From the NCBI GenBank assembly GCA_964016885.1, contig OZ024745.1, forward strand, positions 103,106,001 through 103,170,000: a DNA stretch of 64,000 nt. The letters are read 5' to 3'. The position numbers and the translations under genes are program-made. The notes under the pieces were generated by a model, which did not search any database, was not told where the DNA came from, and saw only the letters and a program-made list of their open reading frames with translations. This DNA comes from Eledone cirrhosa. Its lineage: Eukaryota. This document shows, piece by piece, positions 3,533 to 63,288 of the stretch. How positions within the stretch are numbered: the stretch's first letter is position 1; each line of letters opens with the position of its first letter.

Positions 3533-3690
3533 TTATATGAATGAGTCAGAACTCTGACAGCTGAGCTCTTGCCATTTCAACAGCTAGTTCCAGACTGGGG
3601 TCCTGACTCGTTCATATAACCATACTTTACTACCCCAAGTACTCTGGTGAGTAATGGCCTAACCAGCTTCTCACTGGATCCATCCTGATT
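3533..3690 (+). mobile_element. Diverged copy of hammerhead-remnant fold-back family H3
   Basis: Inverted arms 3533-3554/3597-3619; homologous by eye to 41019-41244 and 58703-58904. Confidence 0.65.
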
Positions 3691-3747
3691 ATTATTATTA
3701 TTTATTTATTTATATGTAGAGCTATCCATCTCCTTTACTGACCAATA

Positions 3748-3819
3748 GTGTGTGTGTGTGTGTGTGTGTGTGTGTGTGTGTGTGTGTGTGTGTGTGTGTG
3801 TGTGTGTGTGTGTGTGTGT
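3748..3819. repeat. (GT)n microsatellite
   Basis: Seen directly. Confidence 0.98.
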
Positions 3820-3952
3820 TGCCTCCATTGGACCTGATTTTGTACCAGTAATTCACATGTCAAAAGCACCAGTTTCAGATACCCTCAGACATTGTCTTGT
3901 TATTTCTTTCATGACCTGCCTCATTTTCTCAGGCCTTATAATGCTCCTTTAA

Positions 3953-4155
3953 CCCTTTATTTAAACCAGCCATTTCCGGCCAGAATTCTCTCACCTCTTT
4001 CTGTTCAAACCAGCTGTAACTGGCCACTCATACTGATGTTAAGGCATTTTCCTCGAAATGAATAATATCAAAATCATAGATTCAATATTTTGTGAGCTAA
4101 AGCCTTTACTGAGAAAATAAAAGAGTAAATATGGAATAATGTAAATGCTAAAGGG
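3953..4155. mobile_element. piggyBac-type MITE
   Basis: TTAA|CCCTTTA...GCTAAAGGG|TTAA; a related partial copy lies at ~61740-61922. Confidence 0.75.
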
Positions 4156-60419: not shown

Positions 60420-61530
60420 TGTGGTGTTAAATTCAGTACTGAAGTAGAAGCATTCCATTAGTTCTGCAAAAAAAAAAAAAAGAAATAACAATAGATAAAT
60501 AAATAAATTACTTTTATGCAACAGCTGAAAAGCTGGAGGGAGCTGAAAGATTTAAGATGCTTCTTCCCAGAGTTAAAGAGGGAGATATACATGGTAATCT
60601 ATATAATCAAGATCTTTGAGAACAAATACCAAACTTTGGCATTGAAAGAAAGGGTGCAAGGAAAATAACTGAATCTTGGAAAACATCAGAGTTGGCAGAG
60701 ACTTGTCAGCACATTCTACAAACCCATGAGCTTCCAATCCAAGAGTGGGGAGGTAGGAGAAGTACATAGAGAGAGACAACCAAGTTAAAAGTATCTCTTG
60801 CAAGAAATGATCAAAAGATTTTACTAAAATAAACATCATTGCTCTCACTAAAGTTCTCAACAATGGAGTGGCAGAGGAATGACATAGGAAAGAAGTCTCC
60901 AGTAAATCTGACTTAATGGAAAATATATTGGTTTTCTCTATAGAGAACAACTGGCATAAGGCAAGGATGCTAGTGATTGTTATCTGTTTTCACCATATAT
61001 AATAAGTTGCAAGTGTCCTTTTTTTTTTACTGTTTAGTTAAAGAGTAAAGGGCAATGTTCTTGACTCTATTTAGGGTCTCCAAAACTGCTGAGAGAAGAG
61101 AAAAAGGATCCTCAAATTGGAGGCATGGTAGAAATGTTGGTAATAGAAGACACTTTGTTAAATGCATCTAGACAATGGGTTAATTCTTGTACAAAAAGAG
61201 GCAATAGTAGGATTTGAACTCAGAAAGTAAAGAGCATATACTGGTACCTTATTTTATTAACCCCAAAAGGATAAAAGGCAGAGTTGACATTAATGTGAGA
61301 GATAGAACAATTACTACAAGACATGTTGTCCCATGATCTAGTTACTATTAATTAGTGATAAAAGAAATAAATTGGTTGTTGGTAAGATCAGAGAAGTTGC
61401 TCTTTTTGAGGATGGGACACATGTAGCATATTTCCAAAGATTGGGAAATATTCCTACAGAAAGATAAAAAGATGGGAGAGTTTGGTGAAATGCATTGTTT
61501 GAATGTAATGTAAAGGATATTGGTAAGCCA
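60420..61530 (-). pseudogene. Highly decayed CR1/L2-like RT remnant
   Basis: CPILKKSNFSDLTNNQFISF resembles PVPKKGD.S..SNYRPI; MFILVKSFDH resembles LDISKAFD. Confidence 0.45.
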
Positions 61531-62364
61531 GTTGCCTTGTATGGTTGGAGCTAACAAAGAAACATTTTAAACTTGTCTAATGTACATGTGTGGTGATGAG
61601 CAATGTTTGTATTAATGAAATAGATCTAATTATACTCAAACACACACTTACATGCACATACACATGCCTGTACATACATGCATGCACATACATACATGCA
61701 CACACTTACACATGTAGTTTGACATATTCACTTATGTTCTACCTCTTTCTGTTCAAACCAGCAATAACCGGCTGCTCATATTTATGTTAAGGTATTGTTC
61801 TCAAAATAAATAATATCAAAATCTCATAGATTCGATATTATGTGAAATAATTATGTGAGATAAAGCCTTTACCATGAAAATACAATAGTAATTATACAGT
61901 AATATAAATGCTAAAGGGTTAAACCTGTATGTATGTTTATGTTTCTCTTAAAATACTTCCTTGAAGAGGGCTACAAGTAAAGTAAACAAAATGAGTTCTC
62001 TGTCCTTAGTTTAGTTTAACATCTGTACATTTATTTCAGCATACTCTCTAAGTTGTTCATACTTCGAAAAAAAACTTAATTCTAGATTTTAATAAAAACT
62101 TAAATAGCATAATTAGTTAATAGTTAATTGATTTTGTAGTGAGGAATTCACTAATAAAGTGTGTGTGTTGTGTGTTTGTTGTGTGTTTGTTGTGGTTTGT
62201 TGTGTGAGTATGTTATGTATTTGTGTGTGTGGTTGGATGTTTATGTATTGTGTGTGTTGTGTGTGTGTGTATGTGTGTGTGTGTGTATATATATATATTT
62301 ATTAAGAAGTGTGATAGAAAACGATGTCTACATTAAAGTTAAATCTGCTACATTTTAAGCTATA

Positions 62365-63040
62365 TCATCATCATCTTCGTTTAACGTCCATTTTCCACGC
62401 TAGCATGGGTTAGATGGGAGTTGTCCTGCTTAAGGCAAGGCTGGTCTAGTGACCATATCTCGCTCATATAGGACTATCTGGCAGGTTTTCTACGGCTGGA
62501 TGCCCTTCCTAACACCAACCACATTTACAGTGTGGAACTGGGAACTTTTTACCGTGTTACCTACACGGCCACATTACAGCGTGGACTGTGTGTGTTTTTT
62601 GTTGTGACACCTACACGATCTCGATCTCATTTTCTCGTGCTGTTGGTGGGAGTGAGAGGATAGGGTAGGGGGTAGTGGATTGGGGTGTATATTTGGTTAA
62701 GAGGTGCCTACTGACTGTAGACTTCGCTTTGTACATAGGCAAAGCGAGTCTTCTGTATTACTGCGTAGCGCCAAAGATCTCGGTCCAGAGACATTGTCTT
62801 AGAGAGATGTAAGTGCGTGAGATTGGAATTTATCAGATCATCCCATGTTTTTATGGGTCTACCTACTCCATAACTACCATCAATTTTGATCGCCCTACAC
62901 TTTTTTATGCAGCTGTCATCTTTCATGCGCATCACATAACCATACCAACGTAGTCTTCTCTCAAGTAAACAGCATCTGATCCCTCTTATTCCTAATTTCT
63001 CACTTAGTTCATTTATGCTTTGCCGTTCACGTATATTACT
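62365..63040 (-). mobile_element. 5'-truncated RTE (subfamily A-related)
   Basis: SNIRERQSINEL..RRLRWYG..GRPIKTW plus 3' UTR and (GAT)n tail; the 5' end lies in (TA)n. Confidence 0.92.
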
Positions 63041-63067
63041 ATATATATATATATATATATATATACA

Positions 63068-63288
63068 TAATGAAGGAGTTGTGGTAAGGAACCAGATGGA
63101 CCATAACACACCAGAGTACTCAATACTTAGTAGTATTGAGTACTCTGGTGTGTAGTGTAGTAGAGTGGGTAATAGGAGAAAGTACGACCCGGACGGTAGA
63201 GTTCAAGCTGTTTCGATGGCTATTTCTGGACTAAAGTAAGAGTTTTTAGTCTGGTAAGTAAATTACTTACGAGACTAAAAACTCTTAC
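63068..63288 (-). mobile_element. Family H3 copy with two short fold-backs
   Basis: Palindromes at 63106-63127/63132-63153 and 63236-63261/63263-63288. Confidence 0.75.

Follow-up and report, generated by a model that had tools for sequence, protein, structure and literature searches.

How does a genome come to hold short palindromes that sit in TA repeats, face one way, and carry pieces of a ribozyme? The question is raised by a stretch of 64,000 nucleotides (nt), here called the window, in the 3.0-Gb assembly of Eledone cirrhosa (GCA_964016885.1, contig OZ024745.1, positions 103,106,001 to 103,170,000). A first, sequence-only reading described four unrelated, non-coding fold-back families and one non-palindromic insert, and took them for diverse hammerhead ribozyme elements that are mobilised by Penelope-like elements (PLEs) and use (TA)n as target. 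The families are labelled H1 to H4 and the insert, at 13741, H5; A and B denote the two 3' ends. The reading preferred here, with a probability of about 0.62, is that the inserts are 5'-truncated pseudo-long-terminal-repeat (pLTR) ends of PLEs (Hydra clade for H1, H3, and H4; Neptune/Nematis for H5) plus a passenger, H2, and that a fold-back arises when a (TA)n tract is cut and its two strands prime on the element RNA, one at A and one at B.

Self-comparison of the window locates fold-backs at 29861-30204, 40747-40986, 41097-41249, 58269-58567, 58703-58827, and 63236-63288, and a further, diverged one at 3533. All the palindromic sites named earlier are thus recovered, two of them with corrections. 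The H2 fold-back placed at 40153 is real, but its palindrome is 40747-40986 and 40153 is the tailed end; the copy at 63068 does contain a hairpin, but its second arm amounts to a short terminal hairpin and falls short of end A. Arms are 94-98% identical to each other (H1, 166/169; H2, 118/121; H3, 62/64 and 59/63; H4, 120/127). The families are mutually unrelated, as described: blastn finds no similarity between the five references at an expectation value (E) of 0.01. TA runs adjoin every fold-back except the 3533 copy, whose flanks are ATT/ATTT repeats, and this setting too had been seen correctly.

All fold-backs in the window are oriented head to head, and genome-wide this polarity holds and is not random. 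It had been presented as two regularities, an inverted arm lying 5' and a unique extension lying 3'. Only one fact remains: the extension adds nothing, because head-to-head arms force the unique outer part to be 3' on the sense strand. First-look searches of the genome return 1,574 candidates for H1, 2,541 for H2, 1,872 for H3, 1,892 for H4, and 1,813 for H5, figures that are not copy numbers; the best 40 candidates were scored per search, so that young copies are over-represented.

What are the inserts? Judged by sequence, H3 and H4 are pLTR ends of coding Hydra-clade PLEs. Long H3 copies run collinearly into an open reading frame (ORF) of the order reverse transcriptase (RT), linker, GIY-YIG, recognised by YRDD, a CNC-x5-C linker, and a GIY-YIG segment. 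The H3 pLTR continues into a 5' leader and ATG in nine of the 30 loci fetched with the RT, and locus L347 holds a full-length element with an open 740-residue ORF. H4 is collinear with another Hydra-type ORF across a GT-rich untranslated region (UTR) in L221-L225, is also linked to it in L375-L402, and sits 5' of a Hydra-type ORF in 9 of 30 loci. Close relatives of H1 likewise sit ahead of predicted Hydra-type ORFs: pLTRs of 84-93% identity precede a third such ORF in L404-L406 (three of seven H1-lineage loci), and a fourth (L185) has an 80% relative at its end. For the young H1 subfamily, the tie to an ORF runs through the 84-93% identical relatives only.

The clade assignment follows from several features. 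Hydra-clade diagnostics include RWR, a conservative variant of RWK, and DKT in L347 and L405, and DKT in L390; the CNC-x5-C linker (CxCX5C) occurs in L157, L223, and L185, with CNLC and CKH near the C-terminus in L347. A single ORF, open over 740 residues in L347, combines an RT with a C-terminal GIY-YIG, as YRDD and GIY-YIG-type motifs indicate, and H3, H4, and the H1 lineage all have a 5' pLTR repeat, forming a partial tandem. H3 measures about 3.5 kb (ORF plus UTR) and H4 in L221 more than 6 kb with nested inserts; both exceed the size of generally under 3 kb given for the clade, which is a tendency only (PMC8557442). Pfam and PDB sequence searches of the Hydra-type ORFs give no match, so that domain names depend on the motifs and on Atlas neighbours, which for both ORF types include RVT_1 and GIY-YIG clusters at 0.93-0.98. 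A single-sequence fold of the 740-residue ORF is unusable (predicted local distance difference test score, 33). The ORF in L386, of the H4 group, has a long low-complexity insert (residues ~480-650) that separates the RT from the linker and recalls the N-rich inserts known from rotifer Penelope elements. TA tracts in the H4 3' UTR of L221 took later insertions, including an H3 fold-back, so that the elements nest in one another.

H5 is assigned to the 3' end of a PLE of Neptune/Nematis type, the two not being told apart. It follows a 500-residue open frame with YVDD, C-x4-CxxC, and GIY-YIG motifs (RVT_1, E 9e-4); the frame shows a CX2-5CxxC linker, a GIY-YIG with two internal cysteines, and a YxDD RT, all as in that type. 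The longest copies of H3, H4, H5, and H1 relatives therefore do adjoin an RT plus GIY-YIG ORF, a check that had been proposed with the first description. The label "non-coding" survives for H2; H3, H4, and the 13741 insert end ORF-bearing PLEs, and H1-like ends precede such ORFs. PLE mobilisation and the (TA)n target stand as claimed, but four of the five families are truncated PLE ends.

H2 is classed as the sole retrozyme-like family, an ORF-less putative passenger. It is a partial tandem with 542-544-nt spacing, a type I hammerhead in each unit, and a longest ATG-initiated ORF of 70 residues. Upstream of it, in 30 loci, lies the previous unit or flanking sequence; PLE ORFs occur near six of the 30, with TA or other sequence in between. 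Might all five families, then, be independent non-coding retrozymes, their unit set by self-cleavage and circularisation and carried by PLE proteins, as first proposed? H2 fits in its tandem units, its want of a long ORF, and the complete hammerhead of its family copies, and the H1-lineage hammerhead is conserved with compensatory changes. H3, H4, H5, and H1 relatives, however, are joined to ORFs and so lack the non-coding tandem organisation of retrozymes; ends do not fall at cleavage sites; short H3 copies omit half of the ribozyme; and the H2 units within one locus (L063) differ from one another, which argues against the copying of a single circle. As an explanation of the whole set, this one is very unlikely.

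How, then, are the ends chosen? In each family the 3' ends are bimodal: A and B lie 45-88 nt apart, the tail between them measuring 88 nt in H1, 87 in H2, 78 in H3 and H4, and 45-56 in H5. Direct head-to-head junctions count as tail-unbiased if they came from tail-free queries or were copies met by chance in flanks; H2, whose loci were tail-selected, is set aside. Such junctions comprise 89 A/B, 0 A/A, 0 B/B, and 5 unclassifiable cases, and after two duplicate loci are dropped the pairing is A/B in 87 of 87 classifiable pairs (43 of 43 if only the chance finds in flanks are counted). Solo arms use both ends (six A and four B in H1; 11 A and seven B in H5), and therefore independent choice predicts A/B in at most half of all pairs; against this expectation the 87/87 has p 6e-27. 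The complete set of 161 strict pairs holds 147 A/B, 6 B/B, 0 A/A, and 8 unclassifiable. H1 fold-backs with spacers of up to 1.5 kb give 16 A/B and two exceptions with distant partners (81-83% identical).

TA is present at both ends in 83 of the 87 A/B pairs and stands directly after B ends in 30/30 H1, 67/67 H3, and 33/34 H4 cases, which bears out (TA)n as the target genome-wide. Three close cases of tail-to-tail pairs were considered; each is split by TA runs and is read as separate insertions. Tailed arms have 5' ends within 15 nt of A in 9 of 89 cases, by eye near expectation, and this count was not used.

Could one arm be a copy of the other? Self-priming, or snap-back, in which one complementary DNA (cDNA) or antisense template folds back and copies itself, was proposed for rotifer Penelope elements (PMC3846280); many short copies here are near-perfect palindromes centred on the 5' start, and their arms share variants. 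In 26 of the 87 pairs, however, the 5' reach of the untailed arm exceeds that of the tailed arm by 15 nt or more; at L161, L165, L176, L178, and L195 an untailed arm of kb length faces a short tailed one. Each arm of these 26 pairs has private sequence, therefore neither was copied from the other, and snap-back is excluded there. It also leaves the stop at A unexplained, and as a general account it is unlikely.

The arms nonetheless have a history in common. Derived variants shared by both arms make up 0.3-1.0% of sites against 0.02-0.3% in permuted pairs; for H1-H4 the sharing is 3-14 times above permuted pairs (p 0.001), and the arms of one pair differ at 2.5-3.4% of sites. Shared variants together with divergence indicate a common source and independent decay. 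Alternatively to priming on one RNA, two separate RNA molecules, or two protein-RNA complexes, could prime the target strands, with the protein imposing A or B according to strand. Such priming would account for private sequence and for fully duplicated arms without strand displacement, and arms that differ by ~3% agree with it. It requires an extra rule for the near-constant A/B pairing, and arms are closer than permuted pairs, a closeness that a single active source locus would equally produce; on balance it is rather doubtful.

A more prosaic explanation is that sequencing or assembly created the palindromes as chimeras. The junctions in the window itself are spanned by no contig or read, the contigs being fragmented and the raw reads reduced-representation, and the read libraries are based on the polymerase chain reaction (PCR). 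Against this, in three other samples under the same species label raw reads contain the fold-back joints of other H3 copies, two samples show an H1 joint, and in three samples more than 2,000 reads per run leave end A into (AT)n. Independent reads thus show other H1 and H3 copies, in PCR-based libraries, but the window junctions stay unspanned. Arms that have diverged to the extent given above, with ends at constant positions in the element and TA on either side, also speak against chimeras, which are exceedingly improbable.

Where do arms begin? Among H3 arms met by chance (n = 58), 46 start within 14 nt of one adenine and three extend past it. Nine of 16 H1 arms met by chance are at the start and none lies beyond, and one of 51 distinct H1 loci has an upstream extension past it. 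The start contexts are TCA, TTA, and CCA, then N-T, with an initiator-like A, and resemble the initiator (Inr)-type TCACT in a rotifer pLTR (PMC3846280). These sharp starts would be transcription starts, and most short fold-backs would represent two cDNAs that ran off the 5' end of the element's own mRNA. A G, perhaps an untemplated cap G, is found at the 5' starts of 5/11 H3, 4/7 H4, and 3/14 H1 cases, although G can also derive from the other arm. Upstream of the H1 start by ~55-60 nt, an octamer, ATTTGCAT, and a pyrimidine tract are conserved (L003, L404) and could be a promoter element.

What sets the stops at A and B? An RCTC-loop-GAGY hairpin lies within 15 nt after A in H1, the H1b group, H2, H3, and H4; after B in H2; and after B in full-length H3 and H4. 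It is present at all eight tested ends of these families, over a background of 1.1-1.5%. The hairpin predicted after the B end of H1 was found as well: the pattern occurs in seven places, all of which continue in the same way and three of which run into an ORF, and nowhere in the reversed control. Short tandems of tail and leader only, without a hammerhead, occur in L408 and L409, where the sequence jumps from a point past hairpin B to the vicinity of A or to within the tail; they are possible minimal mobile units.

The ribozyme, by comparison, does not appear to set element ends, because 5' ends show no pile-up at hammerhead cleavage sites; cleavage as the maker of 5' ends was rejected for the same reason. 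Family-wide hammerhead counts are pattern matches in which misses go uncounted. On that footing the core is CUGANGA in 97/97 H1-lineage matches; canonical in 27/27 H2 matches; CUGAGAA in 35 of 40 H3 matches and UUGAGAA in four; and CUGAAAGA, with a ~60-nt stem II insert, in 64/66 H4 matches. H5 shows core boxes and stems II and III in 23 matches, and its stem I requires a 6-nt bulge. Short H3 copies start inside stem II and so lack the first box. Complete consensus cores, for which the sequence-only reading asked, are therefore found in canonical form in the H1 lineage and H2, but the H3 and H4 cores are non-canonical and stem I of H5 is doubtful. In the H1 lineage (47 of 54 distinct sequences) 94% of cells are paired and six pairs show changes on both sides. 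The count of cells changed on both sides, a measure inflated by relatedness, is higher than in any of 500 shuffles, but the number of such pairs is not (143/500). The U3-A8 hammerhead core is a published variant (PMC4209133), and another Hydra-type element, at L184:5690-5740, has it. In H3, C3 usually stands against A8, which is predicted not to pair, and the family is nevertheless very abundant.

The ORF link, two fixed ends, A/B pairing, TA flanks, hairpins after the ends, and sharp starts are each supported directly, and the mechanism proposed to join them would run as follows. A double-strand cut would be made in a (TA)n tract, and each strand would prime reverse transcription on the 5' leader of the element RNA. 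A PLE protein, perhaps dimeric, would bind the two leader hairpins, and priming would start where a TAT-like sequence, a few bases upstream of each hairpin, matches the target. The two cDNAs would reach the RNA 5' end, at the initiator-like A in the pLTR, or halt sooner; once their 3' ends are joined, fill-in would leave a palindrome of two head-to-head arms, one of them tailed. The long insertions that include an ORF, which are less common, would come from transcripts that read through tandem copies. For the ends seen here, cleavage by the hammerhead is probably dispensable.

A narrower statement is put forward tentatively, at somewhat worse than even odds: Hydra-clade proteins may recognise the pair of RCTC…GAGY hairpins in the 5' leader of their own element and, on one capped RNA, prime from the two strands of cut TA, each strand at its own hairpin, with strong-stop-like cDNAs joining at the transcription start. 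If true, this would account for why there is a tail, why arms are inverted head to head, why copies of 100-300 nt are in excess, and why tandem copies are needed; it would also provide a short cis-signal able to mobilise passengers such as H2.

Several observations weigh against the preferred reading of paired priming at A and B. The A/B rule is not absolute: the six B/B cases among the strict pairs are at tail-selected or H2 loci, and 11 H5 fold-backs with spacers of up to 1.5 kb comprise eight A/B, one A/A, one B/B, and one unclassifiable. The three H5 pairs compared share no derived variants, and H5 has no hairpin motif yet mostly follows the A/B rule. Shared variants show a common source but do not prove that one RNA molecule was used, and some could stem from gene conversion. 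Few H4 arms met by chance reach the start (one of four). The hairpin motif was derived from the same sequences, so that the true tests are the H1-B, H3-B, and H4-B sites only; moreover, minimum-energy folds contain the CTC/GAG stem at six of eight sites, the exceptions being H1-A and H3-A. The bias of the searches toward young copies counts here as well. Finally, the in vitro study of Anolis Poseidon PAc, in its available text, reports that start sites do not differ between the strands and share no homology with the cut DNA (PMC11167929).

The copies in the window illustrate how far the families have decayed. The untailed H1 arm (29861..30029, minus strand) ends at A and has a complete type I hammerhead with its core box at 29954-29960. 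The tailed arm (30030..30292, plus) ends at B; its hammerhead lies at 30097-30157, with a predicted cut at 30149/30150, and its end A at 30204. The tail (30205-30292, plus) contains a hairpin motif at 30207-30229 and is followed by (TA)16. In a relaxed descriptor scan these two arms have the only complete type I motifs in the window. Among the 150 of 175 Rfam matches listed for the window (E<=10) there is no hammerhead; the matches are hairpin and microsatellite look-alikes.

The tailed H2 arm (40150..40866, minus) comprises ~1.3 units of the ORF-less 542-nt tandem. Its hammerhead remnant (40410-40468) has lost 13 nt, the cleavage triplet among them; hairpin motifs stand after A at 40713-40739 and 40203-40229, and after B at 40633-40656, all on the minus strand. 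The untailed inverted arm (40865..40986, plus) ends at A, next to (TA)n. H3 copies in the window lack the 5' core box. One pairs a tailed arm (41019..41160, minus; hammerhead 3' half at 41117-41139, hairpin motif at 41067-41092) with an untailed arm that ends at A (41186..41249, plus); the other pairs an untailed arm that ends at A (58703..58765, minus) with a tailed arm (58766..58904, plus; hammerhead 3' half at 58785-58807, hairpin motif at 58832-58857). Older H3-related copies are a solo copy at 41486..41605 (plus; 72% identity), absent from the earlier list; a tailed arm at 63069..63288 (minus; 74% identity) with a short terminal hairpin at 63236-63288 and an internal palindrome at 63106-63153; and the fold-back at 3533..3686, whose untailed arm is 3596-3535 (minus) and whose short tailed arm begins at ~3597 (plus).

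Neither H4 arm is complete. The untailed one (58271..58396, minus) stops at A; it contains the GAAA box and the cleavage triplet and lacks the 5' core box; the tailed, sense arm (58395..58645, plus; end A at ~58567) has a variant core box at 58428-58435, a mutated GAAA box at 58494-58508, and a tail hairpin motif at 58568-58593 (plus). H5 at 13736..14257 (minus) is a solo 3' UTR/pLTR end that stops at A, with both core boxes and stem II at 13959-13986 and a doubtful stem I. The claim that the inserts carry hammerheads accordingly holds in full for H1 alone; the window copies of H2, H3, and H4 are incomplete.

Other repeats share the window. A large inverted pair (12117-12329/15957-16169 and 12351-12553/15748-15950; 97%), unrelated to H1-H5, encloses H5, another insert, and a 1.5-kb TA tract. 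An old 300-nt inverted-repeat element at 41701-42002 (77%) resembles a miniature inverted-repeat transposable element and matches none of the five families. Facing pairs of common short repeats at 46631-46945 and 33703-34178 match no H family and are probably like short interspersed elements (SINEs). Heads resembling tRNA at 21863-21920, 34280-34337, 45380-45437, 48316-48379, and 63602-63659 (Rfam tRNA, 28-31 bits) probably belong to tRNA-derived SINEs. A segment at 54674-54991 weakly resembles the N-terminal part of a Hydra-type RT (E 8e-5) and is possibly a decayed PLE fragment. Outside the window, L230:2111-6685 (minus) has long ORFs whose motifs resemble a putative Helitron Rep-helicase.

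How do these elements compare with known systems? In L1 twin priming, two target ends prime on one RNA, and an inversion results. Some pairs here are similar, with non-overlapping arms that meet near A; unlike L1 products, pairs usually repeat one sequence in both arms, and priming has two fixed sites.

The elements are ordinary members of a known clade, and their polarity is already in print. Hydra-clade PLEs were described with the head-to-head form, one-sided tail, and (TA)n target (Craig et al. 2021, PMC8557442), and the supplement lists Hydra-1_Obim of Octopus bimaculoides with a (TA)n preference and a hammerhead; compared by eye, that hammerhead matches none of H1-H5. Shared with the clade as described there are RWK-type and DKT motifs, the CxCX5C linker, a C-terminal GIY-YIG, a hammerhead motif in the pLTR, partial tandems, an inverted 5'-truncated copy, a tail at one end, and the (TA)n target; different are the tails (78-88 nt here, 30-40 there), the non-canonical H3 and H4 cores (CUGAGAA and CUGAAAGA), and the multi-kb, GT-rich H4 3' UTR. 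Added to the printed record are the two 3' ends per family, the A/B pairing, the hairpin motif, and the sharp starts. The available text of the Hydra-clade description holds no A/B count, hairpin signal, or sharp starts, and no statement of A/B pairing, a hairpin pair, or run-off was found in the literature as available, where subscription papers and bioRxiv supplements may bear on the point. The main text of a 2026 repeat annotation of Octopus vulgaris reports 31 recently active Penelope-like families and does not contain "hammerhead" or "ribozyme".

H2 resembles non-LTR retrozymes (Cervera and de la Pena 2020, PMC7229834; Li et al. 2026, bioRxiv 10.64898/2026.07.22.740005) in its ORF-less tandem with a type I hammerhead per unit. 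Its 542-nt unit is above the retrozyme range of 170-400 nt and within that of 51-972 nt given in these sources. Unlike retrozymes, H2 has PLE-type A and B ends and both hairpins. The Penelope of Adineta vaga, for which self-priming was proposed (Arkhipova et al. 2013, PMC3846280), usually has head-to-head pLTRs with a tail on one and an Inr-like TCACT in the pLTR, much as here; the 26 pairs with private arm sequence cannot form in the way proposed for it.

The origin of tandem and inverted PLE insertions and of the tail is a named open question (PMC8557442, PMC11167929). For it the Eledone genome offers young, high-copy families and an open 740-residue ORF, along with three predictions for an existing in vitro assay: paired A/B priming, the hairpin signal, and run-off at the transcription start. 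In that assay Anolis PAc starts reverse transcription at two internal sites that bound the tail, uses both strands, and acts independently of ribozyme cleavage (Frangieh et al. 2024, PMC11167929). On the mechanism proposed here the two systems would be alike in their two start sites bounding a tail, an AT-rich target cut on both strands, a predicted dimer, and dispensable ribozyme cleavage. They differ in that the PAc sites lie in the ORF and show no strand bias, whereas those described here lie in the 5' leader, before the ATG, and are paired almost obligatorily.

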